Below, in pieces: positions 33,096 to 51,630 of a stretch of 64,000 nt of DNA. Each line of letters begins with the position of its first letter. Position 1 is the stretch's first letter. A model generated the notes under the pieces. It saw nothing but the letters and a program-made list of their open reading frames with translations. It was not told where the DNA came from and made no database searches. The DNA comes from Candidatus Cloacimonadales bacterium. Lineage in GTDB: Bacteria > Cloacimonadota > Cloacimonadia > Cloacimonadales > JAIOQZ01. A program made the translations under genes and the position numbers. The stretch covers positions 3,330,864-3,394,863 of the forward strand of contig OY771587.1 of NCBI GenBank assembly GCA_963674825.1, written 5' to 3'.

Positions 33096-35354
33096 TTATT
33101 TTAAGAGCAACGCCTTATTGATGCGCGTCTCGCCATCAGTGCGGAGTCTGATAAAGTAGATTCCGCTGGCCGCGTCGGTCGCATCCCACACAATCTGATG
33201 TTTACCCGAAGGCATCGTGCTGTCAAGAAGTGTCTTGACCTTCTGACCTCTGACATTGAACACCTCGATGGATGCTTTGCCGTCGGATGCCAGAGAAAAC
33301 TCGATCGTTGTTGTCGGGTTGAATGGATTGGGGAAGCAATCAAGCGATGTCCGATACGGTTCGGTGATGTCATTGATCGCCAGAAGCGGTTCGAGATGAA
33401 AATAAACGGTGCAGTTCGCGCTCTGTTGCGCGCTATCGGTGGCTGTGATGCTCATCGGCGCATTCTGGGCTTCCTGTACATCATGCCATACGCTGAGTAC
33501 ACCGGTCGAATCGTCGAAGCTCCACTCAAGCTCCAGGCTGTTTGTTTGAAACGCGAATACGAGCTCTTCATCAGGCGTGAAATCATCCTGAACATGTTCC
33601 CAGAGCGAGAGCGTTACAATGCTATCGGCAGGGACAGTGACAACGAAGGGCATGCCTGTAAATGTCGGTGGGTCATCGGGATTGTTGTTGATCGTGATGA
33701 CCATGCTCTCGGTTGTGGTATTTCCAACGCCATCTTCGGCCCAAACCTCGAGCGTGTAAAATCCATCGGGTAGCTGGGTTGTGTCGAATCGCTGGAGCGC
33801 ATCGTTTTCGGTCATGGCAGTGTCGGCGTCTGCATGGCTGATAATGTAGTAGTAATTTCGGGACGTGTAATCGCCGATACTGAAGCAAGTGTTATCGCGA
33901 CTGAAGATGGTGGCGAGACATTCAGCGTCATACGTGGCTTCTCCGTAGGTGTCGTTGGGATAATCCATCGTGAAGGCGAGCTGGTCGATGAGGATGCTAT
34001 CCGGATTCTCAACTGCTGCGATTCTGTACCCGATACGGCTAATGGTGCAACGCCAGTTGCTGTTGATAATGTCATGCGCTTTAGCGATAATATCCACAGT
34101 TCCACTGAGTGCTTCGGGATTTGCGTAGTTATTGTTACTGATGCGGAACGCGAAGAGTTCATTCTGCAGTGCATTTTCGAAAACAGGTGGATTGGTGTCG
34201 AAGTGCTCGTAGGTATCGCGCAACGGATCGTCAGTAGTCCACCACTGGCCGTCCCAAACGACTCCGCTATCCTGGATTCGAGCGTAATGGCAGTGATGAA
34301 AGTCGGACACGGGCCATTCGACAAGTGTTCCAATTACGTCTCCTGCCTGAACAGCGTCACCTTCAGCGACAGTTATACTGTTCTGGTTGAGATGAGCATA
34401 AAGGTATCCTTCGCATTCATCATTTGTATTCTCGAGTGCTATCGCAACGCGCCAGTATAGGTCGCCACCTGTTGTCAGTACAGCTTTTACGATGCCATCT
34501 GCGACTGCGAAGACCTGCTCATTGGGTTGTCCGAGGAAATCGACACCGGGATGCAGATAAGGAGTTCCGCCATAATCTTGAATCTCGAGGTAGGTATTGC
34601 CGATAGGATGAGGATAATCTGCTTCACCGTAGTGCAGAGGTGATGGGATTGGCTGATGTGTTCGGTTATGACGAGAAGCCGGAGCCAGGCGTGTTTTTTC
34701 TATTGTTCCGTCGGTGACATTTATCAGCTTGAATTCTTGCCCTATTCTCTCACTCACATAAATTTTACCATCTTGCAGCGCGACATCGTGCAAGGATCCG
34801 TTCGTGCTGAATAGGGTCTGATTATCTTCCAGGTTATAGAACCGAGTTTGTGTCTGTATAAGTATTGTGTCATTGTTGACGATCATTTTACGCACGATTC
34901 CATCGACACTGTAAACCTTCTCGCGATAACTGATTGTATTACTATTGGAATCCCATAGGGCGAGATTTCCTTTTTGATCGATTGTGAACGCGTCAGCAGC
35001 GGGGAAGATGTGCATTTCTCCGGTATCGGTGTCGAGAGTTCGAACGGCATCACCCGTGGAGAAGACAAGCCAACGAAGATTCGGTGATAATATAGGATCA
35101 ATCGTTTGCCTGAATTGCCATTCACCGAGTATGGTTTCATTGCTGTTAAAAAGTCGGAGTGTGACCGACTGGTGGTCGTGGTGCTCAATATCAATTGAAT
35201 TGTTTAGGCAAGTATAGCGGTCGATGAAGCCGATGTGCTGGCAAGTGTCACCTGTATCGATATACCCACCAGAGGTTAATGATATGGCTGAAAGGGGTAT
35301 GACTGTCATGTACAGTATTGAGATTGTGATAAGCAGTTTCCGAATCTTTTTCAT
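33096..35354 (-). CDS. M23-family metallopeptidase domain protein with T9SS C-terminal sorting domain
   Basis: Start re-called to ATG 35354 (GGGAGG RBS; MKKIRKLLITISILYMTVIPLSA). M23 motifs are HPGVDFLG, AVADGIV, YAHLNQ and HHCHY. The CTD reads CFPNPFNPTTTIEFSL...IEVFNVRGQKVKTL...WDATD...SGIYFIRL. Confidence 0.85.
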   Translation of the reverse strand: MKKIRKLLITISILYMTVIPLSAISLTSGGYIDTGDTCQHIGFIDRYTCLNNSIDIEHHDHQSVTLRLFNSNETILGEWQFRQTIDPILSPNLRWLVFSTGDAVRTLDTDTGEMHIFPAADAFTIDQKGNLALWDSNSNTISYREKVYSVDGIVRKMIVNNDTILIQTQTRFYNLEDNQTLFSTNGSLHDVALQDGKIYVSERIGQEFKLINVTDGTIEKTRLAPASRHNRTHQPIPSPLHYGEADYPHPIGNTYLEIQDYGGTPYLHPGVDFLGQPNEQVFAVADGIVKAVLTTGGDLYWRVAIALENTNDECEGYLYAHLNQNSITVAEGDAVQAGDVIGTLVEWPVSDFHHCHYARIQDSGVVWDGQWWTTDDPLRDTYEHFDTNPPVFENALQNELFAFRISNNNYANPEALSGTVDIIAKAHDIINSNWRCTISRIGYRIAAVENPDSILIDQLAFTMDYPNDTYGEATYDAECLATIFSRDNTCFSIGDYTSRNYYYIISHADADTAMTENDALQRFDTTQLPDGFYTLEVWAEDGVGNTTTESMVITINNNPDDPPTFTGMPFVVTVPADSIVTLSLWEHVQDDFTPDEELVFAFQTNSLELEWSFDDSTGVLSVWHDVQEAQNAPMSITATDSAQQSANCTVYFHLEPLLAINDITEPYRTSLDCFPNPFNPTTTIEFSLASDGKASIEVFNVRGQKVKTLLDSTMPSGKHQIVWDATDAASGIYFIRLRTDGETRINKALLLK

Positions 35355-35613
35355 ATTGTCCTCCCGAAGAATAATCGATAGATACATTGAAGATTTATGA
35401 TTTTTTTATTCCGTAATGTCAAATAAAATCTTAAAACCCCTGAATGGTGGCATAATAATAGAAGTGTGAAAAAGCATCAGCATGCGTCAGGCAGTTAAGA
35501 AGTATACGATGGCTTATTACTCATATGCTCGAATGGAGGTTCACAGACTCAGGAAACTGCTTGACTGATAACGTTGTGTCAGAAAATTGGGAAGCTGTAA
35601 TGAAGGAGGAAAT

Positions 35614-36597
35614 ATGTCGAAATACATGACATTCTTACTTATTTCAGTCTTCACGATCTTTGTATTAGCTGGTTGCCAGAAAAAGGACTCGAAACCTGCG
35701 GATGAGCTTCAGCCTGTTCGATACGGTGGACAATTCTATCCAGGTGAGTTCCTGCTTGATGGATACGATTTCTTCAGCCCCCAGAACGTAACAGTACAAC
35801 ACAAGATTTTCAGCTCCGGTACGGAAAACAACGAAGCACTCATCAGTGGTAACATTGATATTAACGTAGGTTCCGATTCCAAATCGGTTGCGCTTTTCAA
35901 TGCAATGGGCGATAAAGCCCTCATTATCGGTACCGTACAGCGTGGAAACCGCTACTCGACCATGATTCGCCCTGATGCGACCTATACCGATTGGGCCGAT
36001 CTCAAGGGTAAGGTTGTTGGTACTCGTTTCGGATCAGGAGCGGAATTCGTACTGCGTAAGTACTTCGATTCACGTGACGATCTGTCTTGGGACGACTTCG
36101 AGTGGGTCAACATCAAGACGGAAGACATGATTGCCGCGCTTGTGAATAAGAAGATCGAAGCCTTTACCGTTTGGGCTCCGACCAGTGAAATCGCTGAAGC
36201 TCAGGGCAATGCGAAGCTGCTCCGCAATTTTGGTGATGTCGCGCTTACTCCTGTGCTCATCCACACAACGAAAGATTATGCTGACAACAACCGCGAAGCG
36301 CTGGTTCGCTTCATGATGGGCCAGCTTGAAAAAGCGAAGATGATCAAAGACAACCCTGCTGAAGCTGCAAAATACGCAGCAACAGCTGCTCAGGAAAAGG
36401 GGATGGACGTTGCACCCGAGGCGTTTGAGCTTATCTTCCAGCGTATCAATTTCCAGATCGATTTCGGTCAGGAAATCATCGACGAGCTGAAAGAAACAGG
36501 TGCTTTCCTTCAATCTCAAGGAAAGATCGACGAGGTACCGGAGTTTTACTGGGACGATTCGTTTGTACGCGAAGCGCAAACCCGTCTTGCTAAGTAA
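35614..36597 (+). CDS. ABC transporter substrate-binding lipoprotein (NMT1/THI5-like, NitT/TauT family)
   Basis: Start re-called to ATG 35614 (GAAGGAGG RBS). Lipobox LAGC. The periplasmic-binding-protein pattern is similar to sulfonate/taurine/nitrate binders. Confidence 0.75.
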   Translation: MSKYMTFLLISVFTIFVLAGCQKKDSKPADELQPVRYGGQFYPGEFLLDGYDFFSPQNVTVQHKIFSSGTENNEALISGNIDINVGSDSKSVALFNAMGDKALIIGTVQRGNRYSTMIRPDATYTDWADLKGKVVGTRFGSGAEFVLRKYFDSRDDLSWDDFEWVNIKTEDMIAALVNKKIEAFTVWAPTSEIAEAQGNAKLLRNFGDVALTPVLIHTTKDYADNNREALVRFMMGQLEKAKMIKDNPAEAAKYAATAAQEKGMDVAPEAFELIFQRINFQIDFGQEIIDELKETGAFLQSQGKIDEVPEFYWDDSFVREAQTRLAK

Positions 36598-36608
36598 TTC
36601 GGAAGAGA

Positions 36609-37370
36609 ATGGCCTGGTTTAAAAAGCTGTATCTCGATCACATATTGATCCTTATCGCGATTCTTGGTCTGGCTCAGTTTATTCTGACCAGACCAGGAAT
36701 TGCTTCGCCTATCTTCCCAACACCTCTCGTGATCCTGGAACGAATGATCCATTTCCCTAAAATCTGGGTTCACGCACTTTCATCCATCATTCGGCTTTTT
36801 GTCTCTGTAATCACGGGATTTATCCTGGGTGTATTGATTGCCGTAGTCATTCGTGCATTCAAAAAGCTTTCTTTCTTTGAAGACGCAATTTCTTTCTTTA
36901 TGTCGATTCCAGGAATCAGTTGGGCGCCGATCTTTATCATTCTACTCGGATTTGGCGATCGAGTGATCCTTCTCGTTGCGGTTATTACCGCCATTTTTCC
37001 GGCAGCATATTATACATGGCACGGTTTGCTGGCACTTGATCTACATCAGAAGCAGCTTACTGATCTTATGGGTTATAATACTGTCCAACGATACATACAG
37101 TTTGTTTTCCCGGCGATGGCAAATTATCTAGTCATTGGTTTCAAGCTCAGCTTTGCCCGTACCTGGCGTACTATCATTGCTATCGAGATGATCTGTGCTA
37201 CGACGAGTGGCCTGGGCTACATGGCGATGGATGCGCGCGAGCTTCTGAATATCCGTGATTTGTATTGTGGTATCCTTCTTTCGGGCCTTACTTTCCTGGT
37301 TATTGATAAAATTGTTTTCAGCACACTTGAACACTACACTGTTCGGCGCTGGGGAATGAAAGTTAAATGA
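36609..37370 (+). CDS. ABC transporter permease (first of two)
   Basis: Six hydrophobic segments. Context is with the ATPase and SBP genes. ATGA overlap with the next gene. Confidence 0.8.
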   Translation: MAWFKKLYLDHILILIAILGLAQFILTRPGIASPIFPTPLVILERMIHFPKIWVHALSSIIRLFVSVITGFILGVLIAVVIRAFKKLSFFEDAISFFMSIPGISWAPIFIILLGFGDRVILLVAVITAIFPAAYYTWHGLLALDLHQKQLTDLMGYNTVQRYIQFVFPAMANYLVIGFKLSFARTWRTIIAIEMICATTSGLGYMAMDARELLNIRDLYCGILLSGLTFLVIDKIVFSTLEHYTVRRWGMKVK

Positions 37371-38065
37371 AAAAGATTGTTATCGTCCTCGTATTGATAG
37401 CCATAACAATCGGCTATGCTTATTATGAACAGATTGCAGCCGGACACATCTTTGCGCATCTATGGGCGAGCCTTTCACGAATTATAATTGGCTATGCGTT
37501 ATCTGTAGCAGCAAGTTTTCTGACCGCTCTTGCGCTGAGCTTCCTTCCGGGCATTCAGAAATATGTTCGCGTTTATCTGAACTTCCTGATATCGATCCCG
37601 ACAATTGCCTGGATTCCTCTGCTGCTGATTGTTACCGGTATCACGAACCGCACCATGATCATTGCGATTTTCCTTGGATCCTATTTTGCCATCGTGTTCA
37701 ACCTCCTTGATGGCTTCAAGACGGTTGACAAGAATCTTGTGCTGCTTGGTCGAAACCTGGAATATAATCAGGCTCAAAGGCTAATTCGCATTATGGTTCC
37801 AGCGTCGCTTAATACGATTCTGGTCTCGCTTAAACTCGGTATATCGTACTCATGGCGTGCTCTTATTGGTGCTGAAATGCTGGGGGCGGCAACAAAGGGC
37901 TTAGGCTACCTGAGCTTTGCCAGCAGGCAGTTTTACGATCTGAAGACTATGTTCACAGCTCTTGTGCTTATCGGTTTGATTGGCTACTTCCTGATCCAGC
38001 TATTGACTCACTTTATCGAAGAAAACACCATTAGAAAATGGGGATTTAATGATCATACAATGTAA
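37367..38065 (+). CDS. ABC transporter permease (second)
   Basis: Polytopic membrane protein paralogous to the preceding gene (shared ...SWRALIGAEM / ...TWRTIIAIEM loop). Confidence 0.8.
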   Translation: MKKIVIVLVLIAITIGYAYYEQIAAGHIFAHLWASLSRIIIGYALSVAASFLTALALSFLPGIQKYVRVYLNFLISIPTIAWIPLLLIVTGITNRTMIIAIFLGSYFAIVFNLLDGFKTVDKNLVLLGRNLEYNQAQRLIRIMVPASLNTILVSLKLGISYSWRALIGAEMLGAATKGLGYLSFASRQFYDLKTMFTALVLIGLIGYFLIQLLTHFIEENTIRKWGFNDHTM

Positions 38066-38789
38066 ACAGGTAAATAAATTTTTTGGTGACCTGCACGTAT
38101 TAAAAGGTATCGATCTGGAAATAAAGAAAGGCGAGTTCTTTGTGCTGCTCGGACCTTCGGGATGTGGTAAATCTACATTACTCTACATGATGGCAGGTTT
38201 TGATAAACCAACCTCTGGTTCGGTCGAAGTACTGGGGCAGTCGGATATCAAGCCAAGCAAAAAAGTCGGATTCGTATTTCAGGATTTTGCGTTGTTTCCG
38301 TGGAAAACGGTTCTGGGAAATGTCACGGCAGGATTGCTGGACAAGTCAAAAACTGAGCGACGGGACATCGCCATGCATTTCATCGAGAAGGTGGGGCTGA
38401 CTGGCTTCGAGCACAGCTTTCCGCATACTTTAAGCGGTGGAATGAAGCAGCGCGTGAGCATCGCCCGTGCACTTGCCTACGAACCTGAAATCCTGCTGAT
38501 GGATGAACCCTTTGGTGCGCTGGATGCCCAGACACGAAAGAAGATGCAGCAGGAACTTATCCGCATTCTACGCGAGATGAACAAGACCATCGTCTTCGTT
38601 ACGCACAGCGTGCTGGAGGCAGTCTATCTTGCCGATCGCGTGGCGGTTCTCAGCAATCGTCCATCAAGTATAGTCTATCAGGTGAAGATCGAAATCGATG
38701 GCGAAAGGCATTATACAGATGAGAAGTACCTGCATTACCGGGAGAACATCTTGCATTACCTCAATCAGTTTACTGGTGTAAAAGAATAA
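38049..38789 (+). CDS. ABC transporter ATP-binding protein (NitT/TauT-type)
   Basis: Walker A GPSGCGKST, FQDFALFPWKTV, signature LSGGMKQR, Walker B LLMDEPFGALD. Confidence 0.93.
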   Translation: MIIQCKQVNKFFGDLHVLKGIDLEIKKGEFFVLLGPSGCGKSTLLYMMAGFDKPTSGSVEVLGQSDIKPSKKVGFVFQDFALFPWKTVLGNVTAGLLDKSKTERRDIAMHFIEKVGLTGFEHSFPHTLSGGMKQRVSIARALAYEPEILLMDEPFGALDAQTRKKMQQELIRILREMNKTIVFVTHSVLEAVYLADRVAVLSNRPSSIVYQVKIEIDGERHYTDEKYLHYRENILHYLNQFTGVKE

Positions 38790-38800
38790 AGGAGATACCC

Positions 38801-39034
38801 ATGGAACAAGAATTACTCCAATTCATCCTCGACACGTTTGTACCAATGGCAGATGAAGAAGTGACTACTACGACATCGCTATTTAAAGAGAAGGTTCTCG
38901 ATTCGCTGAATCTGGTTTCGATCATCACGCATATTCAGTCTGAATATGGCATTGACATCCAGCCCTTTGAAGTTACGTTGGATAATTTCGACTCTGTCGA
39001 TATGATTTGCCAATATATACGCAGCAAACAATAA
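38801..39034 (+). CDS. Acyl/peptidyl carrier protein (DltC-like, 77 aa)
   Basis: AAGGAG RBS 11 nt after the ATPase stop. The phosphopantetheine-attachment context is VLDSLNLVSIITHIQSEYG. The size equals DltC/ACP. Confidence 0.8.
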   Translation: MEQELLQFILDTFVPMADEEVTTTTSLFKEKVLDSLNLVSIITHIQSEYGIDIQPFEVTLDNFDSVDMICQYIRSKQ

Positions 39035-39049
39035 CACATCGGAAATCCT

Positions 39050-40135
39050 ATGTTTTTTCAAAATACAAGAGTCCAGATAATCCTCTGGGCTCTGTTTTGG
39101 TTCATTGTACTTGGAGCCGGGTTCGATTTCCTGGTTCGCAATCAGCTGCTGTTCGCGAATAAAACAGTCCGATCCATCATCATCAAGAATTACAACAGCA
39201 AGGATATAGGTGCTGTTCTGTCGCTCAGCGACCGGATAGAAACCGAAGGTGATCAGATACCGCGGTACTTGTTCCTGGGTGGTTCTCAGGTAAAAGAATG
39301 TGTCAAGGACGATCAGGGTGTCACGATTGCTCTTTCGGATTCACTGGGACAGGATGTTGAATTTGCCAACATGGCAACTGGCTACGGGAATTTTTACGAT
39401 AATCTTAGGCTTGAAGAATCACTTGCGGGTACGAAAAACCTGATTTACATGATCGGCGTTTCACCAAGCTATTTTACTTGGGCAGATTCGATACAGTTTT
39501 TCTACGATGTTGGCAAAGATTCTCAACGAAAGCTGCAATACAAGTATCCGATGCTTGCTCCATCTGATACGGGAATCTCGATTGTAAAAGATCACGATGC
39601 GGATATCTCGCTGAGAGCATACTTCCCTGGATTCCAGACTGCCTATACATTTTGCAAGATCGGCCAGAAGGTTTTTCAGCATATTCTTTACGAGAAATTA
39701 TTTCCATCCCTGGATAATCCGTTGGACGAGGATGCGAGAAGCAAACCGACTTGTGCAGAGTTGAAAATGCTGAGATATGAGCGACTTAAATATAAGTTTC
39801 CGAAGGAATTTGAGAAATACAGTCAGACAAACCGTGCAATGATAATGGCTTGTATCGATGAGGCGAAGAAACAGGGAAACGAGGTGATCCTTGTTGATCT
39901 GCCATACACGCCGATTCTTGAGGTTCATCGGGATACACTTGTGAGTAATTACGAGCCATATATTGATGCAATTGCTCATGAGACAGATACGCCGATCCTG
40001 TCCTTGCGATACGATGTTTTTGTTGAGGCAGACTTCGTTGACGGCATTCATATGTCGGAAAGCGGTCAGAAGAAAGCGGCTGCTTTGCTCGTTGATGAGC
40101 TTACACAATGGTCTCGCAAGGTGGTTAATCAATGA
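39050..40135 (+). CDS. N-terminally anchored SGNH/DltD-like O-acyltransferase
   Basis: Single N-terminal TM (IILWALFWFIVLGAGF). Candidate nucleophile block FLGGSQV. C-terminal D-x-x-H block FVDGIHMSESG. Position is next to the MBOAT gene. Confidence 0.6.
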   Translation: MFFQNTRVQIILWALFWFIVLGAGFDFLVRNQLLFANKTVRSIIIKNYNSKDIGAVLSLSDRIETEGDQIPRYLFLGGSQVKECVKDDQGVTIALSDSLGQDVEFANMATGYGNFYDNLRLEESLAGTKNLIYMIGVSPSYFTWADSIQFFYDVGKDSQRKLQYKYPMLAPSDTGISIVKDHDADISLRAYFPGFQTAYTFCKIGQKVFQHILYEKLFPSLDNPLDEDARSKPTCAELKMLRYERLKYKFPKEFEKYSQTNRAMIMACIDEAKKQGNEVILVDLPYTPILEVHRDTLVSNYEPYIDAIAHETDTPILSLRYDVFVEADFVDGIHMSESGQKKAAALLVDELTQWSRKVVNQ

Positions 40136-41319
40136 TCTTTTTCAAGGGTGTTTATTTGCTCGCTATACTTATCAGTCTTGCCATCTATTGGATTGTACCG
40201 AAGAAATTTCGTATATGGTGGATGGTTATCAGTGGACTCGCGATCCTCATGCACATCCAGTTGGTGTGGACGCTGTTCTTTGTTGCATTAGCTGTCTATT
40301 CATGGCTCGCAGGCAGATTTGTTGCCACGAAGCCAAAGAAGACGATTGTCTATCTTGTTGGATTCATCATCTTGCAGGCGACGATCATGATGACGCTCAA
40401 ATACTACCCAGTGCTGTGCAAAAAATTCTGGCCGGAAGATGTCACCATGATTGGTCATCTGCTTGTTCCGATGGGCGTGTCGTATTTCGTCTTCAGGCTG
40501 ATCGCGTATGTGCTGGACAGTTTCAGGGGAATCGTCAAGAAGCACAGCTCGCTAGTCGATTTCCTGGCATACATCCTCTTTGTGCCGATCTTCCCGGCAG
40601 GTCCAATCGAGCCTTATAATCATTTCTGGGGTATGAGGCAGGAGAAGCTTGGAACTGATGATGTTATCTACGGACTCAAACGGTTGCTCTGGGGTTATGC
40701 CAAGAAGATTATCCTGGTCAACTACCTGCTCCAGATGCTGGTCTATGAAACCTTAAAGCCCCTCGTGCTCAACGATCCGCTCGATGGCTCGGTGAATGGC
40801 ATGCTTACTATCGCTTTCCTGGTCGGCAGCCTGGTTTATGCCTATCTCGACATCTCGGCTTACGCGGATCTCGCGATCGGATTCAGCCGCCTGTTCGGCT
40901 TCAGAGTAAGCGAAAACATGAACTGGCCGATTCTGGCCACCAATACAAGTGAATATTGGAATCGTTGGCACATGACGCTCTCCAACTGGTGCCGGAACTA
41001 TGTCTATTTCCCGATTCTCATCCGCACGAAGAATCTCTACATGGCGCTCTATGCCAGTTTCCTGGTGATGGGCCTCTGGCATCACGTGGGCCTGACCTGG
41101 GTGATGTGGGCTGTGTGGCATGCCTCGGGAATTCTGATCTACTCCTTCTGGAGCAGGTTTACCCGTAAGAACAAGGCAATCGTCATGTTTGGCAGACGCA
41201 AGCCAGTCAAAGTTTTCTCAGCGCTGATCACGGTACTGTGGTCGTCGGGATCGTTTGCATTCATCAACACGAGTGGGATGCGCGAAGCATGGTTCGTATT
41301 CCGCTCCATTATACAATAG
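40132..41319 (+). CDS. MBOAT-family membrane-bound O-acyltransferase (DltB/AlgI-like)
   Basis: Polytopic protein of 395 aa. The hallmark catalytic-His region is EYWNRWHMTLSNWCRNYVYFP. ATGA overlap with the upstream gene. Confidence 0.88.
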   Translation: MIFFKGVYLLAILISLAIYWIVPKKFRIWWMVISGLAILMHIQLVWTLFFVALAVYSWLAGRFVATKPKKTIVYLVGFIILQATIMMTLKYYPVLCKKFWPEDVTMIGHLLVPMGVSYFVFRLIAYVLDSFRGIVKKHSSLVDFLAYILFVPIFPAGPIEPYNHFWGMRQEKLGTDDVIYGLKRLLWGYAKKIILVNYLLQMLVYETLKPLVLNDPLDGSVNGMLTIAFLVGSLVYAYLDISAYADLAIGFSRLFGFRVSENMNWPILATNTSEYWNRWHMTLSNWCRNYVYFPILIRTKNLYMALYASFLVMGLWHHVGLTWVMWAVWHASGILIYSFWSRFTRKNKAIVMFGRRKPVKVFSALITVLWSSGSFAFINTSGMREAWFVFRSIIQ

Positions 41320-41328
41320 GATCAAGAT

Positions 41329-41448
41329 ATGAAACAGCTGAAAAACTCTCTGAAAGGACTCGCGATCGCGCTGCTTATCTACGCGATCCTGTTCATCCAT
41401 TTCTTTATTTCATCGGGACCGCCGATGTTCCGGTATGAGGGGTTCTGA
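41329..41448 (+). CDS. Unannotated 39-aa single-TM micro-protein with C-terminal FRYEGF (DltX-like FxYxxF tail)
   Basis: Below the ORF-track cutoff. ATG 41329 (AGGA 8 nt upstream), 9 nt after the MBOAT stop. Its stop at 41446..41448 is 2 nt before the ligase ATG. It translates to MKQLKNSLKGLAIALLIYAILFIHFFISSGPPMFRYEGF. Confidence 0.65.
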   Translation: MKQLKNSLKGLAIALLIYAILFIHFFISSGPPMFRYEGF

Positions 41449-41450
41449 TC

Positions 41451-42917
41451 ATGACCGAGCTGCCCCTGTCTTTTTTGCTGCAATCCGCTGAGAAGTATCC
41501 CGAAACGATTTGTCTGCGTACGCCCGAAGAGAGGTACACGTACGCTCAATTTCTCGATAGAACCCGTCGCCGCGCCACGTTTCTGGCTGAAAAGGGAGTT
41601 GGCAAGGGAACGCTGGTAACCATCCAGACTCGTGATTATATCGAATTCATCTCGACGATGTTCGCCTGCTGGATGCGTGGGGCGATTCTGGCACCGCTTA
41701 ACACCGGTCAACCGCCGCGAATCCATCAGGTTATCGACGGGATCCTCAAACCAGGGATCGGATTCCACGACAAGGAGAATCCATTCGGTTACGAGCCAGC
41801 GTATCCTGTTCATTTACTTGAGCTAAGCGAGACACCGCTCCAGGTGTTTACTCCGGTTGAACCGGATGATATCTCCATGATCATGTTTACATCAGGTACG
41901 TCCGGTGTTCCCAAAGGCGTACCGTGGAAGCACTGCAATACATGGCGTAATGCGGTTGAGACTGGCCAGCGTATCGGGGTGGAGCAGGCGGATAATCTTT
42001 TTCTCAATACACCACCCTACACCACGAGTTCGATCAACCACATTTTAACCATGTTCGCTGTCGGCGCTACGCTAAGCATTGATCAGGGTTTCATGTTTGG
42101 CGCCGGTATTCTGGATCAGCTCGATACTTACGAATGCACCGCGTTCGGAGGAGCGCCCGTGCACTTCATGCGTCTCATCGGCGCGCTGAAGGTGAAGAAG
42201 CCGCTCAGGCCGATCCGGTTCCTCTTCAATTCCGGCGAGCATCTTCCCACGCCCGTGCTGGAAGAGCTGATCGAGTATCTTCCCGAAACAGAGATCCACT
42301 GCGTGTATGGACTCACCGAGGTCTCAGGCCGATTCTGCATCCTCCCATGGAAGGATGTGAAGAAGAAAGCTGGTTCGGTTGGATTCCCACTACCGTCATT
42401 GCAAGTTACGGTCAGGGATGATGACGGTAAAGCGTGCCCGGTGGGAGAAGTTGGCGAAGTGTACATCACCGGTTCGCTCTTGATGGATGGCTATTACAAT
42501 GCGCCCGAAGCCAACGCAAAGGCTTTCAGTGAACACGGTTTTGCCACGGGGGATGTTGGCAGTCTGGACGAAGACGGCTACCTGTTCCTGGTGGGTCGCA
42601 ACGATAGTGTATTCAAGGTTGGTGGCGAGAAAGTGAGCATCGGTGCGATCGAAGAGCTTCTTCTTGAATTCGATATGTTCGATGAGGTTGCGGTTATTGC
42701 CGAGTTTGACCAGAACATGGGCAACGTACCTGTCCTTTATTATGTACTACACGAGTCTTGCTCGCTTTCACGGCGCGATATCGTTGTCGCGATCCGCGAA
42801 CGTTTACCCAAGACGCATATCCCGGTTAGATTCTATCAGGCAAGCAAGCTGCCGCGCACCCAGTCAGGAAAGGTCATGCGTCAGGCCGAGAAACTGAAAC
42901 CCTATGTGATTCAATAA
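41451..42917 (+). CDS. Adenylate-forming enzyme (AMP-binding; DltA-like carrier-protein ligase)
   Basis: MFTSGTSGVPKGV (core A3), GEVYITG, FATGDVG, GRNDSVFKVGGEKV and PRTQSGKVMR (A10 Lys). Confidence 0.88.
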   Translation: MTELPLSFLLQSAEKYPETICLRTPEERYTYAQFLDRTRRRATFLAEKGVGKGTLVTIQTRDYIEFISTMFACWMRGAILAPLNTGQPPRIHQVIDGILKPGIGFHDKENPFGYEPAYPVHLLELSETPLQVFTPVEPDDISMIMFTSGTSGVPKGVPWKHCNTWRNAVETGQRIGVEQADNLFLNTPPYTTSSINHILTMFAVGATLSIDQGFMFGAGILDQLDTYECTAFGGAPVHFMRLIGALKVKKPLRPIRFLFNSGEHLPTPVLEELIEYLPETEIHCVYGLTEVSGRFCILPWKDVKKKAGSVGFPLPSLQVTVRDDDGKACPVGEVGEVYITGSLLMDGYYNAPEANAKAFSEHGFATGDVGSLDEDGYLFLVGRNDSVFKVGGEKVSIGAIEELLLEFDMFDEVAVIAEFDQNMGNVPVLYYVLHESCSLSRRDIVVAIRERLPKTHIPVRFYQASKLPRTQSGKVMRQAEKLKPYVIQ

Positions 42918-42929
42918 AATATTCGATGC

Positions 42930-42960
42930 CAAGGGGTCGCCTGGTATACAGGCCCCCTTG
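42930..42960. terminator. Hairpin between convergent genes (CAAGGGG..GCCTG-gtata-CAGGC..CCCCTTG)
   Basis: 12 paired bases with a 2-nt bulge. It lies between the 42917 (+) and 43045 (-) gene ends. There is no clear U-tract. Confidence 0.5.
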
Positions 42961-43044
42961 CCTGCATCTCTCTTCATTCGAACTACCCTGTCCCTCGCTA
43001 CATCTCTAACTAAACACTCATTAGGATGGCCGCGATATGATGCT

Positions 43045-45158: not shown

Positions 45159-46430
45159 ATGTGGAAGAACGAAACTGACATCAACCAGGTGTTCGAACTC
45201 AGAACACGTACAACCGACTTCTTTGGCGTCGGTGCGATCAAGAAGATGAATGATATCGCTGCAACCCTCAAAGGTATCGGCATCAACAAAGCGCTGGTAA
45301 TGACCGGCGGATCATCCTATCGCAGAACTGGAGCCTGGGACGTAATCGAGAACGCCCTGAACAATAACAACATCGACTATAAACTGTACAATGCCGTAAC
45401 CCCGAACCCTACAGACAAGCAGGTTGACGAAGCGGTAGCGATCGGTCGTGAATTTGGTGCGGAAGTAGTTATCGGAATCGGCGGCGGAAGCCCTATCGAC
45501 GCAGCCAAGAGCACAGCTATCCTGCTTGAATACCCGAACCAGACTGCTCGCTCGCTGTATGAATTCGAATTCGCACCCGCGAAGGCCAAGCCCATTATCG
45601 CGGTTAACACAACCCACGGAACCGGAACCGAAGTGAACCGTTTCGCGGTTGTAACCATCTTCGATAAGGAATACAAACCGGCAATCGCTTACGATTGCAT
45701 CTACCCGCTCTATGCGATCGACGATCCAGGTCTTATGACGGGTCTTCCCGAGAACCAGACACGCTTTGTCAGCATCGACGCGGTCAACCACGTAACCGAA
45801 GCCGCGACCACTATCGTCGCAACCCCGTACGTCATGATGATGGCGAAAGAGACCATCAGCCTCGTGGCAGAATATCTGCCGCGCGCAATGAAGGATCCGA
45901 AAGATCTCACCGCTCGCTACTTCCTTACTTATGCGTCTGCAATCGCCGGCATCGCATTCGATAACGGTCTTCTGCACTTCACGCACGCTCTCGAGCATCC
46001 GCTTAGTGCTGTGAAGCCGGATCTGGCACACGGTCTTGGCCTGGCGATGATCCTGCCGGCTGTGATCAAGGAAATCTATGCTGCGCGTCCAAAAGTCCTC
46101 GCTGACATCTACTCGCCGGTAATCCCCGGTCTCAAAGGTGTTCCGGAAGAAGCCGAAATTGCTGCGAAGGGTATCGAAAACTGGCTGTTCAGCCTCGGTA
46201 TCGACAAGAAGCTTGCTGACGAAGGTTACACCGATTCCGACATCGACAAGCTGGTACACCTCAGCAAGACCACCCCGTCGCTGGATGGGCTGCTTGGAAT
46301 CGCGCCGGTAAAAGCTACCGACGAAGTGATCCGTCGCATCTTCACCAATAGCATGCACAGAATGGGAGAAGTCGAAAGCGAACTGCTGAAGACCCCGAAG
46401 CTTGGTTGCCCGAAAGCGAGCAACGAATAA
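45159..46430 (+). CDS. Iron-containing alcohol dehydrogenase (Fe-ADH family)
   Basis: GIGGGSPIDAAK dinucleotide motif. Metal-binding His cluster (HALEHPLS..., HGLGLA). About 420 aa. AAAGGAG RBS. Confidence 0.9.
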   Translation: MWKNETDINQVFELRTRTTDFFGVGAIKKMNDIAATLKGIGINKALVMTGGSSYRRTGAWDVIENALNNNNIDYKLYNAVTPNPTDKQVDEAVAIGREFGAEVVIGIGGGSPIDAAKSTAILLEYPNQTARSLYEFEFAPAKAKPIIAVNTTHGTGTEVNRFAVVTIFDKEYKPAIAYDCIYPLYAIDDPGLMTGLPENQTRFVSIDAVNHVTEAATTIVATPYVMMMAKETISLVAEYLPRAMKDPKDLTARYFLTYASAIAGIAFDNGLLHFTHALEHPLSAVKPDLAHGLGLAMILPAVIKEIYAARPKVLADIYSPVIPGLKGVPEEAEIAAKGIENWLFSLGIDKKLADEGYTDSDIDKLVHLSKTTPSLDGLLGIAPVKATDEVIRRIFTNSMHRMGEVESELLKTPKLGCPKASNE

Positions 46431-46494
46431 TGGTGGTTTCGGAAATCTACCGGAAACACAGAAATAGATTGACGAAGTAATGGCAAGATTCATA

Positions 46495-46512
46495 TCGATA
46501 GAAATCTATCGA
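46495..46512. promoter_or_regulatory. Perfect inverted repeat TCGATAG-AAAT-CTATCGA immediately upstream of rex
   Basis: 7+4+7 palindrome 18 nt before ATG 46530. It has the same TCGATA-N6-TATCGA form as in the adh promoter. A TTGACG box precedes both. Confidence 0.5.
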
Positions 46513-46529
46513 AAATGAAAGGAGACATC

Positions 46530-47165
46530 ATGAAGCCCGTATCGATCCTGACCCTGAGAAGACTTTCACAGTACTTGCAGATCATCCTGGAAGCGCAGAA
46601 GGAGCGGCAGGAATACATTTCTGCCACCACACTCGCCAACATGACCGGAGTACACCGTACGCAGGTTCGCAAGGATCTCTCTTCGACCGGCGTGGTAGGC
46701 GTTCCGAAAGTCGGACACAAGGTGAACGAGCTGGCCCTCGCGATAAGTGAATTCCTCAATTGGAACGATTCATCGGAGGCCTTTCTGGTCGGAGCGGGAA
46801 ATTTGGGTTCTGCGATATTGGGTTATCGGGAAATCTTCGAGACCAAAGGGATGAAAATACTTGCGGCATTTGATAATAACCCTGATCTTATCGGTACGAA
46901 GATTCATGATGTCCCCGTTTTTGCCATGGAGAAATTCGGAAACCTCGCACAGCGTTTGCACGTACACATTGGTATTGTAACCGTTCCGCCAGAGGCAGCA
47001 CAGCCAGTGGTGGACATGATGCTCGAAACGGGAATCCTTGCGATCTGGAATTTTGCTCCGGTTCAGCTTGTAACCCCAGAAGACATCATTGTCGAGGATG
47101 TCGATTTGTATGCCAGCCTGGCCGTGTTATCACAGCGGCTGGCAGTCAAACTGATGAAAAAATAA
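46530..47165 (+). CDS. rex: Redox-sensing transcriptional repressor Rex
   Basis: Start re-called to ATG 46530 (GGAG RBS). Winged-helix N-terminus (RRLSQYLQIL..., ISATTLANMTGV). Rossmann motif LVGAGNLGSAIL. Confidence 0.9.
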   Translation: MKPVSILTLRRLSQYLQIILEAQKERQEYISATTLANMTGVHRTQVRKDLSSTGVVGVPKVGHKVNELALAISEFLNWNDSSEAFLVGAGNLGSAILGYREIFETKGMKILAAFDNNPDLIGTKIHDVPVFAMEKFGNLAQRLHVHIGIVTVPPEAAQPVVDMMLETGILAIWNFAPVQLVTPEDIIVEDVDLYASLAVLSQRLAVKLMKK

Positions 47166-47250
47166 CTGAATCGTACAATTTCCAAAAACAAGCCACGAGA
47201 AGTATTGCTGCGTGGATTTTACCCGGAAATCGTATAACCATGGAGAAATA

Positions 47251-47751
47251 ATGACAGACACCCTGCAAGCAAACCGCAGTTTTCGCAAAGTGATCGAGAT
47301 CCTCGATCATCACCAGCGCGATCCGAAGATGATCATTCCCATACTGCAAGCCGTACAGGAAGAATACCGCTACCTGCCTCAGGAAGTGCTGGTGTTTATC
47401 GCGACGTCGCTGGGCGTATCGCCGGCGAGAATCTACGGTGTGGCGACATTTTACAGCCACTTTTCGCTCGAACCCAAGGGAAAACATATCCTGAAGGTGT
47501 GCGACGGAACCGCTTGTCATGTAAAGGGTTCCGGTAAAATTATCAAAGCCCTGAAAGACCATCTCGGCCTTAGCGATAAAATGAAGACTACCCAGGACAT
47601 GCTTTTTACCCTCGAAACAGTTTCCTGCCTGGGTGCGTGCGGCCTGGCACCGGTGTTGGTCGTGGACGAAGACGTCTATGGCCAGGTCACTGCCGAGCGC
47701 AGCGTCGAGATCGTGAACGAGCTCAAAGAAAAGGAGGGACACAATGTGTAA
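47251..47751 (+). CDS. hydC: NuoE-like [2Fe-2S] subunit of NADH-dependent [FeFe]-hydrogenase (HydC)
   Basis: Start re-called to ATG 47251 (GGAGAAATA-ATG). Thioredoxin-like 2Fe-2S motifs CDGTACHVKG ... CLGACGLAP. Confidence 0.88.
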   Translation: MTDTLQANRSFRKVIEILDHHQRDPKMIIPILQAVQEEYRYLPQEVLVFIATSLGVSPARIYGVATFYSHFSLEPKGKHILKVCDGTACHVKGSGKIIKALKDHLGLSDKMKTTQDMLFTLETVSCLGACGLAPVLVVDEDVYGQVTAERSVEIVNELKEKEGHNV

Positions 47752-49621
47752 CCTCGAACAGATTGCAGCAAGCTATCAAAAGAATCGCAAGGACTGCGCA
47801 CGCCGTGTGATCATATGCGCCGGAACAGGCTGCATCGCGAACGGATCGCTTAAGGTTCATGCCGCGCTGAAACGCATCGCCTCCGAAAGAGGTCTGGATG
47901 TGACTATCGAGCTCAAGGGTGAAGACAAACACGACGTCCTGCTCTCCAAGAGCGGATGTCAGGGATTCTGTCAGGTCGGTCCATTGGTTACGATTGAACC
48001 GGAAGGTTTTCTCTACACACATGTTAAGCCAGAAGATGCTGAGGAAATCGTACATACCACTCTGCAACACGGAAAAGCCGTTGACCGCCTGCTTTACAGA
48101 ATTCCCGCAGACCAAACAGTCTGCCCGACGACACAGGATATTCCTTTCTATGCCAGACAAACACGTAACGTGCTCGATAAATGCGGACGAATCGATCCGG
48201 AGAATATCGACGAATACATCGCCGACGGGGGCTACGTCGCGGCACGTAAAGCCTGGCTCGAACTGACACCGGAAGAAATTTGCAACACCTATAAAGAAGC
48301 AGGTTTACGGGGCAAAGGCGGCGGCGGCTTTTCCGCTGGCGTTAAATGGGACCTCTCCCGGAAACAACCATCTGAAGATAAATACATCATTTGCAACGGA
48401 GACGAAGGCGATCCGGGCGCGTTCATGGATCGCAGTGTCCTCGAGGGCAATCCCCACAGCGTGATCGAAGGTATGTTGATCGCGGCGAGGGGATCGAAGG
48501 CCAACCACGGTTACGTCTATGTTCGCATGGAATACCCGCTGGCATGCGCCAGAATTCGCAAGGCGATTGTGGATGCCGAACAGCAGGGAATTCTTGGCGA
48601 CAACATCTTCGGATCCGGCCATTCATTCGATATAAAGGTAATGGAAGGCGCCGGCGCGTTCGTCTGTGGCGAAGGCTCGGCGATGATCGCTTCCATCGAA
48701 GGCGGAAGAGGCATGCCCAGGACCAAGCCGCCACGGTCGGCGGAAGTCGGTCTGTTTGGCAAGCCCACCGTTATCAACAATGTGGAGACTTTGGCGACGG
48801 TCCCGCAGATTCTGCGTCATGGCGTCGAGAAATTCCGCTCCATCGGCACGGAGAAATCACCCGGAACCAAGGCGTTCGCCCTCACCGGTCACGTGGCCAA
48901 TACCGGCCTGATCGAGGTTCCCTTCGGTACAACCATCCGCGAGATTGTGTTCAATATCGGTGGTGGCGTGATCAATGACAACGGCGAGATCGACAACGAC
49001 AGCTTCAAGGCTGTGCAGATCGGCGGACCGTCCGGTGGTTGCCTCACGGCTGATCATCTCGATGTACCGCTCGATTTCGATTCGCTCTCTTCCATTGGCG
49101 CGATGGTCGGCTCCGGCGGACTGGTTGTGATGAACAAGAGCACCTGCATGGTCAGGATCGCGTCTTTCTTCATGAAGTTCACCCAGCACGAAAGCTGTGG
49201 GAAGTGCGTGCCGTGTCGCGAAGGAACCCGCCAGATGCTTGAACTGCTGGAAGACATCACCGAAGGTCGCGCGGACGAGACTACCATTCCGCTTCTCGAA
49301 GATACCGCCGAGACCGTACAGATCACCTCGCTCTGCGGTCTGGGAAAATCAGCTCCGAGCCCGGTTCTTTCCACTCTGCGTTATTTCCGCGATGAATACG
49401 ATGCGCACGTTGTCGGTAAATACTGCCCGACGCGCGAATGTAGCGCGCTGGTTCCGATCACCATCGATCCCAACATCTGTGTGGGCTGTACGCTCTGTAA
49501 GCGCAGTTGCCCGGTTGGCGCGATCACCGGAACCGTGAAGCAACCGCATTCCATCGATCCCGAGAAGTGCATCAAGTGCGGTGCCTGTATCGAAGTCTGT
49601 AAATTCAAGGCGATTTCCTGA
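47744..49621 (+). CDS. hydB: NuoF-like flavoprotein subunit (HydB): NADH/FMN-binding with Fe-S domains
   Basis: GLRGKGGGGFSAGVKW (FMN/NADH site). ESCGKCVPCREG (N3-type 4Fe-4S). Two C-terminal CxxCxxCxxxCP ferredoxin motifs. An N-terminal 2Fe-2S-like domain is also present. Confidence 0.92.
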   Translation: MCNLEQIAASYQKNRKDCARRVIICAGTGCIANGSLKVHAALKRIASERGLDVTIELKGEDKHDVLLSKSGCQGFCQVGPLVTIEPEGFLYTHVKPEDAEEIVHTTLQHGKAVDRLLYRIPADQTVCPTTQDIPFYARQTRNVLDKCGRIDPENIDEYIADGGYVAARKAWLELTPEEICNTYKEAGLRGKGGGGFSAGVKWDLSRKQPSEDKYIICNGDEGDPGAFMDRSVLEGNPHSVIEGMLIAARGSKANHGYVYVRMEYPLACARIRKAIVDAEQQGILGDNIFGSGHSFDIKVMEGAGAFVCGEGSAMIASIEGGRGMPRTKPPRSAEVGLFGKPTVINNVETLATVPQILRHGVEKFRSIGTEKSPGTKAFALTGHVANTGLIEVPFGTTIREIVFNIGGGVINDNGEIDNDSFKAVQIGGPSGGCLTADHLDVPLDFDSLSSIGAMVGSGGLVVMNKSTCMVRIASFFMKFTQHESCGKCVPCREGTRQMLELLEDITEGRADETTIPLLEDTAETVQITSLCGLGKSAPSPVLSTLRYFRDEYDAHVVGKYCPTRECSALVPITIDPNICVGCTLCKRSCPVGAITGTVKQPHSIDPEKCIKCGACIEVCKFKAIS

Positions 49622-49629
49622 AGGAGTGA

Positions 49630-51630
49630 ATGATGAAGCCGATGATTTATATTAACGACCGACCGATCCCTCTGGAAGGGGAGAAGAATATATTAGCCGT
49701 CGCGCGCAAGGCGCATATCGATATCCCGACCTTCTGCTACCACTCTGAACTGAGCACCTATGGCGCGTGCCGGCTGTGCCTTGTCGAAATAGAAGGAAAG
49801 GGAATCGTCACGAGCTGCTCAACGCCGCCACGGGAGAACATGCGTGTTTATACGCACACCCGTCAGATCCAGCGTCTTCGCAAGAATATCGTCGAGATGC
49901 TGCTGGCAAACCACGATCAGCAATGCCCGACTTGCGCACGTTCCGAGACATGCAGTCTGCGCTCTCTGAGCGCGAAGCTGGGTATCGAGAACGTCCGCTA
50001 CAGAAAAACCCGCAACCCCAAGGAGAAAGACACCGGTTCCATCGCGCTGGTTCGCGACCCGAACAAGTGCGTTCTCTGCGGTGACTGCGTTCGCTACTGC
50101 GACGAGATTCAGGGAATCGGCGCGATCGATTTCTCGAACCGTGGGGAAGACGTGGTTGTTGCAACGGCCTTCAACAAGAGTATGGCCGATGTCGATTGCG
50201 TGAACTGCGGCCAGTGCGCGGCTGTCTGTCCGGTTGGTGCGATTACCATTCGTTCGCACACCGTCAATGTCTGGGACGAGATTCACGATCGCGAAAAGAC
50301 CGTTGTGGCGCAGATTGCTCCGGCGGTTCGCGTAGCGATCGGCGAAATGTTCGGCATGCCGTCCGGCGAAGTGACGACCGGAAAGATCGTTACCGCGATG
50401 CGTATGCTGGGCTTCGACCAGGTTTACGATACATCCTTCGCAGCCGACCTGACCGTCGTGGAAGAGGCCAACGAGCTGCTTAAACGCAAGAGTGCCGCAG
50501 GCAAGCTGCCGGTGTTCACCTCCTGCTGTCCCGCGTGGGTAAAATACGCCGAGCAATCGCAACCCGATCTGCTTCCGTATCTCTCATCCTGTCGCTCACC
50601 GCAGCAGATGTTTGGTTCCATCGCGCGCAATATGTTGCCGCAGAAGCTTGGAATCAAGCAGGAAAATCTCGTGGTTGTCTCAATTATGCCATGTACGGCG
50701 AAGAAATACGAGTGCGCTCGTCCCGAATTCAGGACGGACGGCTTCCAGGATGTCGATTACGCGCTTACCACGCAGGAACTCGGCAATATGATCAAGGAAG
50801 CGGGTATTGATTTCGCAGCGCTCGAACCGGAAGCGATGGATCTTCCCATGGGCATGGCGACCGGTGCCGGTGTCCTCTTTGGTAAGACCGGTGGCGTCAG
50901 CGAAGCGGTGATCCGCTATGCTGCCGACGTGCTGGGCGCGGAATGCCCGGACGCGATCGACCTCGAAGAAATCCGAGGCGTGAAGGGTATTCGCGAGACG
51001 GAAATCGAGTTCGGTTCCACCAAGCTTCGCATGGCTGTCGTGCATGGACTCAAGAATGCCGCGACCGTGGCGAAGAAAGTCCTCAGCGGTGAGATGGAGT
51101 ATGACATTGTGGAAGTGATGGCTTGCCCAGGCGGCTGCATTGGCGGCGCTGGACAGCCGATTGTTCACTCAGAAGATAAGCGCCAGATGCGTGCAACAGC
51201 CATCACCCATACAGACAAGGTCAGTCCGCTCAAGAAATCCCATCGTAATCCTTACATTCAGGAGCTTTACAACACGATGCTCGACGCGCCCAACAGCGAA
51301 GTCGCGCACAAGATGTTGCATACACATTATACAAGCCGAAAGCGCATCGCGGACGAGAATATCTCGCTTACGGGAACCTCCTCATCCGAGCGAATCAAGG
51401 TCCGCGTATGCGTGGGCACGAGCTGCTATCTTCGTGGAGCGCACGACTTGCTCGCGAACCTGTTGAAGGCTGTTGAAGAAAACGAATGGACTCAGAAAGT
51501 CGATCTTGGTGCAACCTTCTGTACGGAGCGTTGCGACCGCGGACCGTCCGTGTCAGTCGGCGATGAGGTGCTCCATTTCGCGACACTTGAGAACGTGCTT
51601 TCGATGATCCAGGGTGCGATCGGAGCGTAG
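49630..51630 (+). CDS. hydA: [FeFe]-hydrogenase catalytic subunit HydA (bifurcating, group A3-like) with C-terminal thioredoxin-like 2Fe-2S domain
   Basis: H-cluster motifs are TSCCPAW, MPCTAKKYE and EVMACPGGCIGGAGQP. N-terminal 2Fe-2S (CYHSELSTYGACRLCLVE) plus 4Fe-4S motifs. The C-terminal extension reads VCVGTSCYLRG...FCTERCDRGP. Confidence 0.95.
   Translation: MMKPMIYINDRPIPLEGEKNILAVARKAHIDIPTFCYHSELSTYGACRLCLVEIEGKGIVTSCSTPPRENMRVYTHTRQIQRLRKNIVEMLLANHDQQCPTCARSETCSLRSLSAKLGIENVRYRKTRNPKEKDTGSIALVRDPNKCVLCGDCVRYCDEIQGIGAIDFSNRGEDVVVATAFNKSMADVDCVNCGQCAAVCPVGAITIRSHTVNVWDEIHDREKTVVAQIAPAVRVAIGEMFGMPSGEVTTGKIVTAMRMLGFDQVYDTSFAADLTVVEEANELLKRKSAAGKLPVFTSCCPAWVKYAEQSQPDLLPYLSSCRSPQQMFGSIARNMLPQKLGIKQENLVVVSIMPCTAKKYECARPEFRTDGFQDVDYALTTQELGNMIKEAGIDFAALEPEAMDLPMGMATGAGVLFGKTGGVSEAVIRYAADVLGAECPDAIDLEEIRGVKGIRETEIEFGSTKLRMAVVHGLKNAATVAKKVLSGEMEYDIVEVMACPGGCIGGAGQPIVHSEDKRQMRATAITHTDKVSPLKKSHRNPYIQELYNTMLDAPNSEVAHKMLHTHYTSRKRIADENISLTGTSSSERIKVRVCVGTSCYLRGAHDLLANLLKAVEENEWTQKVDLGATFCTERCDRGPSVSVGDEVLHFATLENVLSMIQGAIGA

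Follow-up and report, generated by a model that had tools for sequence, protein, structure and literature searches.

We describe a micro-open reading frame (micro-ORF) that lies between a gene for an MBOAT protein and a gene for an adenylate-forming ligase in a 64,000-nucleotide (nt) stretch of contig OY771587.1 from a Candidatus Cloacimonadales bacterium (assembly GCA_963674825.1), referred to below in its entirety as the window. The micro-ORF is a real, conserved, and translated gene under purifying selection. We propose, at a probability of roughly 0.75, that its 39-amino-acid (aa) product acts as a DltX-type tyrosine acyl shuttle, belonging to a separate family that we name for its FRY tail, in a carrier-protein-dependent pathway of envelope acylation. 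The features of the micro-ORF are as follows:

41329 to 41448, + strand: micro-ORF encoding 39 aa, read from the sequence and the list of ORFs
41318 to 41321, + strand: AGGA, Shine-Dalgarno-like, 7 nt 5' of the micro-ORF ATG, found by sequence reading and kept in contig L081 of the closest relative
41428 to 41445, + strand: codons of the C-terminal hexapeptide FRYEGF (F34-R35-Y36-E37-G38-F39), with the Tyr36 codon TAT at 41434-41436

The micro-ORF runs from an ATG at 41329 to a TGA at 41446-41448 and encodes MKQLKNSLKGLAIALLIYAILFIHFFISSGPPMFRYEGF. Its ATG follows the MBOAT stop codon (TAG, 41317-41319) by 9 nt, and the ligase ATG (41451) stands 2 nt past its own stop, both of which agree with a preliminary description of the locus that had been made from the sequence alone. 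The translation also upheld the single transmembrane (TM) helix and the extreme C-terminal F-R-Y-E-G-F given in that description: the N-terminus is basic (K2, K5, K9), the helix spans about residues 10-29, and a tail of ten residues follows. Under the positive-inside rule, by which topology was inferred rather than computed, the protein would be single-pass, with its N-terminus in the cytoplasm and its C-terminus outside. The protein thereby has the DltX type of architecture (fewer than about 60 aa, with a basic N-terminus, a single TM helix, and a C-terminal tail that is short and extracytoplasmic), and its last six residues have the form F-x-Y-x-x-F; Tyr36 is presumed, by analogy with DltX, to be the acyl-accepting residue. 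The preliminary description had called the ORF unannotated, which holds for the ORF track on which it drew and does not hold publicly, as the NCBI/ENA protein collection includes the identical 39-aa protein, nameless, from a contig of 3,893,010 bp. A word-indexed homology search with the micro-ORF protein alone returned that same protein as its sole match, a search of contigs for exact matches of the window's micro-ORF and MBOAT proteins found none, and the micro-ORF protein had no match in Pfam or NCBIfam.

The coding status of the micro-ORF was assessed against the closest relative available, ENA contig L081, whose MBOAT is 86% identical to that of the window and which has a called 39-aa gene at the same site (7198-7317; product MKHLKESLKGLGIALLVYAILIIHFFISSGPPIFRYEGF). 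Between the two micro-ORFs, 20 codon changes are synonymous and 6 are non-synonymous, for a ratio of non-synonymous to synonymous substitution rates (dN/dS) of 0.035, compared to 0.061 in the adjacent MBOAT gene; nucleotide differences at codon positions 1/2/3 number 4/1/22. The six tail codons hold four synonymous and zero non-synonymous changes, and the five other frames of the region are interrupted by stops in the window and in L081. The window contains 1818 stop-delimited frames with a length of 20 aa or more, of which the micro-ORF alone ends in F.Y..F. A hidden Markov model (HMM) of the family, built from 163 proteins with the window and L081 members left out, scored the micro-ORF at 29.7-30.0 bits (E 4.5e-8 over the 1818 frames), and the runner-up frame of the window scored 5.6 bits. 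Rfam returned no match in the micro-ORF region, and no promoter-like or terminator-like site was seen between the MBOAT and ligase genes.

Relatives of the micro-ORF were sought around MBOAT genes, as the preliminary description had suggested, by an MBOAT-profile scan that took one genome per species and yielded 80 loci; the family HMM was run over 84 MBOAT-seeded loci in all. The hosts of the scanned loci include Pseudomonadota, Actinomycetota, Planctomycetota, Bdellovibrionota, Lentisphaerota, Gemmatimonadota, Bacillota, and others; culturable relatives among them are Magnetospirillum fulvum (L025) and Alsobacter metallidurans (L012). In the 80 loci, 58 of 21,522 stop-delimited frames ended in F.Y..F. 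About 45 of these 58 were small ORFs with one helix, encoded on the same strand as the MBOAT, and had tails such as FRYVGF, FRYQGF, FRYEGF, and similar; the remainder were mostly the C-termini of longer (475-521 aa) and more distant MBOATs that end in F[IV]YFQF. Around the small FRY ORFs, in variable gene order, are homologs of the ligase and carrier protein found in the window and, often, of its SGNH-like protein. The family HMM matched in 59 of the 84 loci; each of its 60 matches shared the strand of the MBOAT gene, and the opposite strand gave none. The ORF and its tail are conserved in syntenic and non-syntenic relatives alike. By an approximate stop-to-stop classing, 20 FRY ORFs were placed directly upstream of the MBOAT gene, 12 directly downstream, and 27 elsewhere in the cluster. 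Loci that lacked a match mostly had fused tails, very short contigs, or variants just under the threshold.

In the clade nearest to the window, whose MBOATs are 40-45% identical, the FRY ORF directly follows the MBOAT gene, as it does in the window, and the micro-ORF products share an LF-x-H-[YF] helix signature. The micro-ORFs of this clade are as follows:

L082 (a Leptospirales metagenome-assembled genome), 6187-6309: product ending ...MVERIKEAMIGFIWALFVLFILFVHYTLCEAVPVFRYEGF, tail FRYEGF
L083, 6289-6420: product MSRLLKTIKESLCGLFWTLVIFLILFGHYVLCIEVPPFRYLGF, tail FRYLGF
L084: product MKTTLKQCGQGLFWASLVFVTLFVHYAMCVDVPEFRYMAF, tail FRYMAF
L002: product MRFWTLTKEILAGLGFAVLLLVILLVHYGMTSDVPPFRYIGY, tail FRYIGY

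The FRY-tail family is under-annotated: the L082 and L083 micro-ORFs can be read in the DNA, but in the collection searched neither is recorded as a gene of its NCBI assembly. An alignment of 47 members, in which the F and Y of the tail are invariant, returned 21 proteins in a word-indexed search, all of them "hypothetical" or nameless and none with a Pfam domain. A HMMER search run exhaustively over 1.84 billion cluster representatives returned 176 clusters at E<=1e-3, all of 33-74 aa and none named, whose alignments nearly always reached the C-terminus; no Pfam domain was found among these 176 clusters. In a set of 164 retrieved proteins, 162 of which had the family tail, counts from the C-terminus were F at position -6 in 162, R at -5 in 151, Y at -4 in 163, G at -2 in 114, and F at -1 in 127, with Q, E, or V at -3, and none of the 164 ended in F[IV]YNEF. 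The window protein matched the leave-out profile, has the tail F-R-Y-x-G-aromatic at its C-terminus, and is encoded next to a same-strand, short, tail-less MBOAT in a ligase and carrier-protein cluster. Three further members were found by microprotein sequence on metagenomic contigs outside of the 80 loci; two of the three adjoin a called MBOAT in a ligase cluster, and the third follows a contig-end gene of no recorded family and lies beside a GDSL-like gene. By profile, tail, and context, the micro-ORF protein is a member of a distinct, unnamed, and widespread FRY-tail family, and not of Pfam DltX.

Several variants were observed within and beside this family. In a sub-clade (L042, L047, L053, L054, L055, and L086), the MBOAT gene is directly followed by an ORF of 45-49 aa whose tail is FRYxD/E and then L, I, or Y; this sub-clade is associated with two large tandem AMP-binding genes. 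One locus, L076, has two copies of the FRY micro-ORF (4334-4462 and 5640-5771). In L063 (7187-7366) and L067 (7192-7371; Cystobacter fuscus), a short MBOAT gene is directly followed by a 59-aa ORF that ends in FIYIDF, a tail of the DltX or fused type, which may represent a third kind of separate shuttle peptide.

Four other genes make up the operon in which the micro-ORF lies (38801-42917), coding in order for a carrier protein, an SGNH/DltD-type protein, a DltB-type MBOAT, and an adenylating ligase. These genes and their flanking features are as follows:

38801 to 39034, + strand: 77-aa acyl/peptidyl carrier protein with a DSL phosphopantetheine site at Ser35 (Pfam PP-binding, 25.8 bits; cutoff 20.8)
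39050 to 40135, + strand: 361-aa SGNH/DltD-like protein, anchored in the membrane at its N-terminus; its putative catalytic residues are Ser79 (LGGS) and Asp331/His334 (FxDxxH)
40132 to 41319, + strand: 395-aa DltB-like MBOAT with conserved catalytic His317 (Pfam MBOAT, 75.4 bits)
41451 to 42917, + strand: 488-aa adenylate-forming ligase, not DltA (Pfam AMP-binding, 206 bits)
42949 to 42974, + strand: terminator-like hairpin past the ligase gene, the likely end of the operon
35587 to 38789, + strand: NitT/TauT-type ABC importer (SsuA-like binding protein, two permeases, and an ATPase; NCBIfam matches)

A profile of the MBOAT and 29 homologs, searched against the PDB, matched DltB structures only (6BUG, E 1.7e-51; 8JEM, E 3e-51), in an alignment that reaches both C-termini and that places W316-H317 on the catalytic WH of DltB; on the NCBIfam DltB model (TIGR04091) the protein scored 133.6 bits, below the cutoff of 375. 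Its length of 395 aa, its ending in ...FRSIIQ, and its alignment to the end of DltB set it apart from the fused acyl-shuttle MBOATs of the PatA/AlgI/WssH type, and none of 120 MBOAT homologs had an F.Y..F C-terminus. In the 361-aa protein, which is presumed to be the final transferase, G77, S79, D331, and H334 are invariant across 12 homologs, 5 of which matched Pfam Lipase_GDSL_2. Its syntenic homolog in L082 passed Pfam DltD (25.0 bits; cutoff 22.7), and a full-length BLASTP alignment (E 6e-21) joins it to the window protein. Two SGNH-like paralogs stand in tandem in L019 (3801-5986). The 77-aa carrier protein, presumably the cytoplasmic acyl donor, had weak NCBIfam ACP and DltC matches that were all below cutoff (DltC model 30.4, cutoff 68), and ACP homologs occur in most of the related clusters.

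The ligase, which is presumed to load the carrier protein with a carboxylate, had as its best PDB relatives the LgrA A domains (194 bits) and MenE (183 bits), with DltA at 97-103 bits, and the NCBIfam DltA model was absent among the best 25 of its 106 matches. In amino-acid adenylation domains, Asp235 binds the alpha-amino group. The FD of the LgrA amino-acid-binding pocket aligns with YT in the window ligase, such that the equivalent of Asp235 is a threonine; this comparison was made on a full-length alignment, as a PDB search with a fragment of the ligase returned no match. The motif at the FD site in the window's ligase clade is PPY[FTY]TS. Because the ligase has Thr in place of the amino-binding Asp, an alpha-amino acid such as D-alanine is unlikely to be its substrate. 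A reading of the locus as a dlt operon was not borne out: because the DltA, DltB, and DltC models were missed or scored below cutoff and the ligase lacks the amino-binding Asp, the operon is not a true dlt operon.

Two ligase clades occur with FRY microproteins, that of the window (PPY[FTY]TS, with tails mostly FRY[V/E]GF) and one with FDYG at the same site (tails mostly FRYQGF), which suggests different acyl substrates. In the MBOAT clade nearest to the window, the clusters of L082, L083, L084, and a JGI contig also contain a protein of about 450-470 aa with an FMN_red match, and those of L082, L083, and the JGI contig, though not L084, contain a VOC/glyoxalase protein of about 135 aa (FMN_red/VOC gene coordinates: L082, 6313-9623; L083, 2201-3616 and 6423-6851; L084, 156-1499). 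Both genes are absent from the window operon, and they may hint at synthesis of the acyl substrate. The ligase gene of L081 was called at 263 aa (7321-8112), yet matches both AMP-binding domains; a deletion, a frameshift, or a faulty assembly may explain the short call. The ABC importer ends 11 nt before the carrier-protein gene and is kept in L081. Its absence from the 80 other loci led us to reject it as a core component; it may be a lineage-specific accessory that imports the acyl substrate, or a mere neighbour.

The reading that we favour draws on published work on the Dlt system, in which DltB moves D-Ala from DltC to the invariant Tyr of the C-terminal FxYxxF of DltX, from which it passes to a serine of DltD (PMC12148441); the relay given in the preliminary description agrees with this account. 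In PatA, the equivalent Tyr of a fused motif is auto-acetylated (PMC12148441). We propose that the C-terminal FRYEGF of the micro-ORF protein most likely serves as an acyl shuttle, as in DltX. The ligase would adenylate a carboxylate, probably not an alpha-amino acid, and load it onto the 77-aa carrier protein; the MBOAT would then pass the acyl group from the phosphopantetheine thioester of the carrier through its tunnel to Tyr36 at the outer face; Ser79 of the SGNH/DltD-like protein, which is anchored in the membrane, would take the acyl group over from the tail; and this protein would esterify an envelope acceptor. The acyl-tyrosine chemistry, the physical complex, and the nature of the acyl group and acceptor are inferred from the published work on DltX and PatA.

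Several results weigh against this reading. Neither the window protein nor any of 47 relatives matched Pfam DltX (PF12459) at E<=10, where the positive control, DltX of Bacillus thuringiensis (MERLKEIWSRPLTQWVAKTVYYLAILFALLWLYGFHDTNTSTFIYNEF, which ends in FIYNEF; PMC5541007), scored 75.7 bits over a cutoff of 25. The F(I/V)YNEF type of DltX tail that had been given in the preliminary description is thus upheld by the Bacillus thuringiensis protein. The family HMM scored that protein at 2.2 bits, and hhalign of the FRY family with DltX gave a probability of 17% (P 0.0015), though the alignment was end-to-end and brought the tails into register; when the PDB was searched with Bacillus DltX, no DltX chain turned up for comparison. 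Neither DltX nor PatA has the near-invariant Arg (-5) or the Gly (-2) of the FRY tail. The SGNH-like protein itself had weak GDSL/NonGDSL Pfam matches, its single-sequence AlphaFold model was unusable (predicted local distance difference test score, pLDDT, of 36), and a PDB profile search with its family returned nothing meaningful.

The alternative that best survives this evidence, although we hold it to be unlikely, is that the microprotein is purely a structural or assembly subunit that joins the MBOAT to the SGNH-like protein, with the acyl group going straight from the MBOAT to the SGNH-like protein or to the acceptor and no acyl-tyrosine. The Arg and Gly of the FRY tail are unlike DltX, and the published model gives DltX a scaffolding function as well (PMC12148441), both of which would fit a structural role; but invariance in the family is confined to the F and Y of the last six residues, which lie as far from the C-terminus as they do in DltX and PatA, whose Tyr is a proven acyl acceptor (PMC12148441), and the MBOATs of the window clade lack a tail of their own.

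A second alternative, which we consider very improbable, holds that the micro-ORF is the detached C-terminus of a fused-motif MBOAT of the PatA/AlgI type, joined by read-through of the TAG or separated by a nonsense split. In the window and in L081 the MBOAT and the micro-ORF share one frame and are set apart by TAG-GAT-CAA-GAT (TAG plus the residues DQD), and fused-motif MBOATs are known both from the present scan and from the literature (PMC12148441). However, in L082, L083, L084, and L002 the MBOAT gene and the micro-ORF do not share a frame, on which ground we rejected a read-through fusion; the in-frame TAG is lineage-specific, and in most other loci the ORF is upstream or several genes off. 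The micro-ORF also has its own ATG and AGGA, and the MBOAT already ends where DltB ends, past its basic loop and last hydrophobic helix. Because the MBOAT ends like DltB and the N-terminus of the microprotein is basic, the C-terminus of the former would lie outside and the N-terminus of the latter inside, and a linker of three residues would be too short to span the membrane between them. The fused MBOATs, moreover, have two extra helices and not one (PMC12148441). We take the shared frame to be a coincidence.

It is also highly improbable that the micro-ORF is a regulatory upstream ORF that couples or tunes expression of the ligase: its stop falls 2 nt before the ligase ATG and its last codons contain GAGGGG 8 nt before that ATG, but its amino-acid sequence is conserved beyond what translation as such would call for, and in most related loci the ORF is not beside the ligase gene. 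That the micro-ORF is a chance frame in an untranslated spacer of 131 nt between the MBOAT and ligase genes (a 130-nt gap in the preliminary description, which had named this as a way in which its claim could fail) has next to no probability despite the shortness of the ORF and its lack of recognition by Pfam and NCBIfam, because it is the single F.Y..F frame of the window, its codon changes against L081 are biased towards synonymous ones, and the gap holds no RNA family, promoter, or terminator; its leave-out HMM score and its homologs in 59 of the 84 loci, on the MBOAT strand every time, point the same way.

Elsewhere in the window, two large secreted proteins (30657-33008 and 33096-35387, both on the - strand) carry type A sorting domains of the type IX secretion system (T9SS) above the curated cutoff, and the host is therefore a T9SS-bearing diderm. 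Downstream of the operon (45159-51630) are genes that by eye, from their translations, resemble an iron-type alcohol dehydrogenase, the Rex repressor, and NuoE/NuoF, which suggests an anaerobic fermentative host. A single ORF of 3238 aa occupies 1215-10931 (-), and no tRNA genes were found in the 64-kb window.

Literature searches for DltX-like genes outside of the Dlt system found nothing else, and FRY-type microproteins may have been catalogued earlier. On the evidence in hand, the logic of the acyl shuttle is known, and what is new is its use on a separate, widespread FRY family at carrier-protein-dependent MBOAT clusters that are not Dlt. MBOAT-SGNH pathways besides Dlt have been said to use acyl-CoA and a fused motif, with no carrier protein or DltX-like microprotein (PMC12148441; bioRxiv 10.1101/2024.09.17.613324). 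The window locus and its relatives constitute a second, phylogenetically broad set, with a separately encoded, proposed shuttle peptide of a different family and with non-DltA ligases. We would put at about even odds the wider proposition that FRY microproteins mark widespread, undescribed, carrier-protein-dependent MBOAT pathways of diderms and Actinomycetota that are distinct from Dlt, that the window clade transfers a non-amino-acid acyl group to an envelope acceptor, and that the Arg beside the Tyr is a mechanistic feature specific to the family. Were that so, the current published view, in which the pairing of a carrier protein with a separate microprotein is peculiar to Dlt, would be contradicted. 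A small ORF that ends in F-R-Y-x-G-F near a short MBOAT gene provides a search handle for such pathways, including in assemblies whose annotation misses the FRY gene (L082 and L083), and the family offers a test of the generality of the acyl-tyrosine relay and of the contribution of the conserved Arg.

Among known systems, the Dlt-like operons of some Gram-negative bacteria (Dickeya, Pectobacterium, and Photorhabdus, with dltBAC plus dltD and an acceptor that is unidentified; PMC3544676) resemble the window operon in being carrier-protein-dependent MBOAT clusters of diderms, and differ in that their ligases are annotated as D-alanine-activating, whereas the ligase of the window is not DltA-like. 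Small DltX-like ORFs with the same topology as DltX and no sequence similarity have been described in Gram-negative species (PMC5541007). The MBOATs of the PatA/AlgI/WssH type, which belong to acetyl-CoA-dependent MBOAT-SGNH pairs, share with the proposed pathway a terminal hexapeptide whose invariant Tyr hands an acyl group to an SGNH partner. Fused F[IV]YFQF tails also occur on the more distant MBOATs of the present scan. They differ in that the window's motif is on a separate gene product, in the length of the MBOAT (395 aa in the window, 475-521 aa in theirs), and in the donor, which is acyl-CoA in theirs and presumably a carrier-protein thioester in the window.

The closest likeness is to the Dlt system itself. 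Both DltX and the micro-ORF protein have about 40-50 aa, a basic N-terminus, one TM helix, and an external tail that ends in F-x-Y-x-x-F, and both are encoded alongside the same four kinds of partner (DltB-type MBOAT, carrier protein, adenylating ligase, and SGNH/DltD-type protein). The tail of the window family is F-R-Y-(Q/E/V)-G-F, in contrast to the F-(I/V)-Y-N-E-F of DltX; the window gene follows the MBOAT gene, whereas the DltX gene heads the dltXABCD operon of Gram-positive teichoic-acid D-alanylation; the window ligase is not DltA and is without the amino-binding Asp; and in a T9SS-bearing diderm host, a teichoic-acid acceptor would not be expected. The label "DltX-like" of the preliminary description stands for architecture, tail, and operon context and falls for family membership, as 0 of 47 relatives matched PF12459. 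By analogy, the micro-ORF protein can be regarded as DltX-like by every architectural and contextual criterion tested, yet outside of the DltX sequence family.

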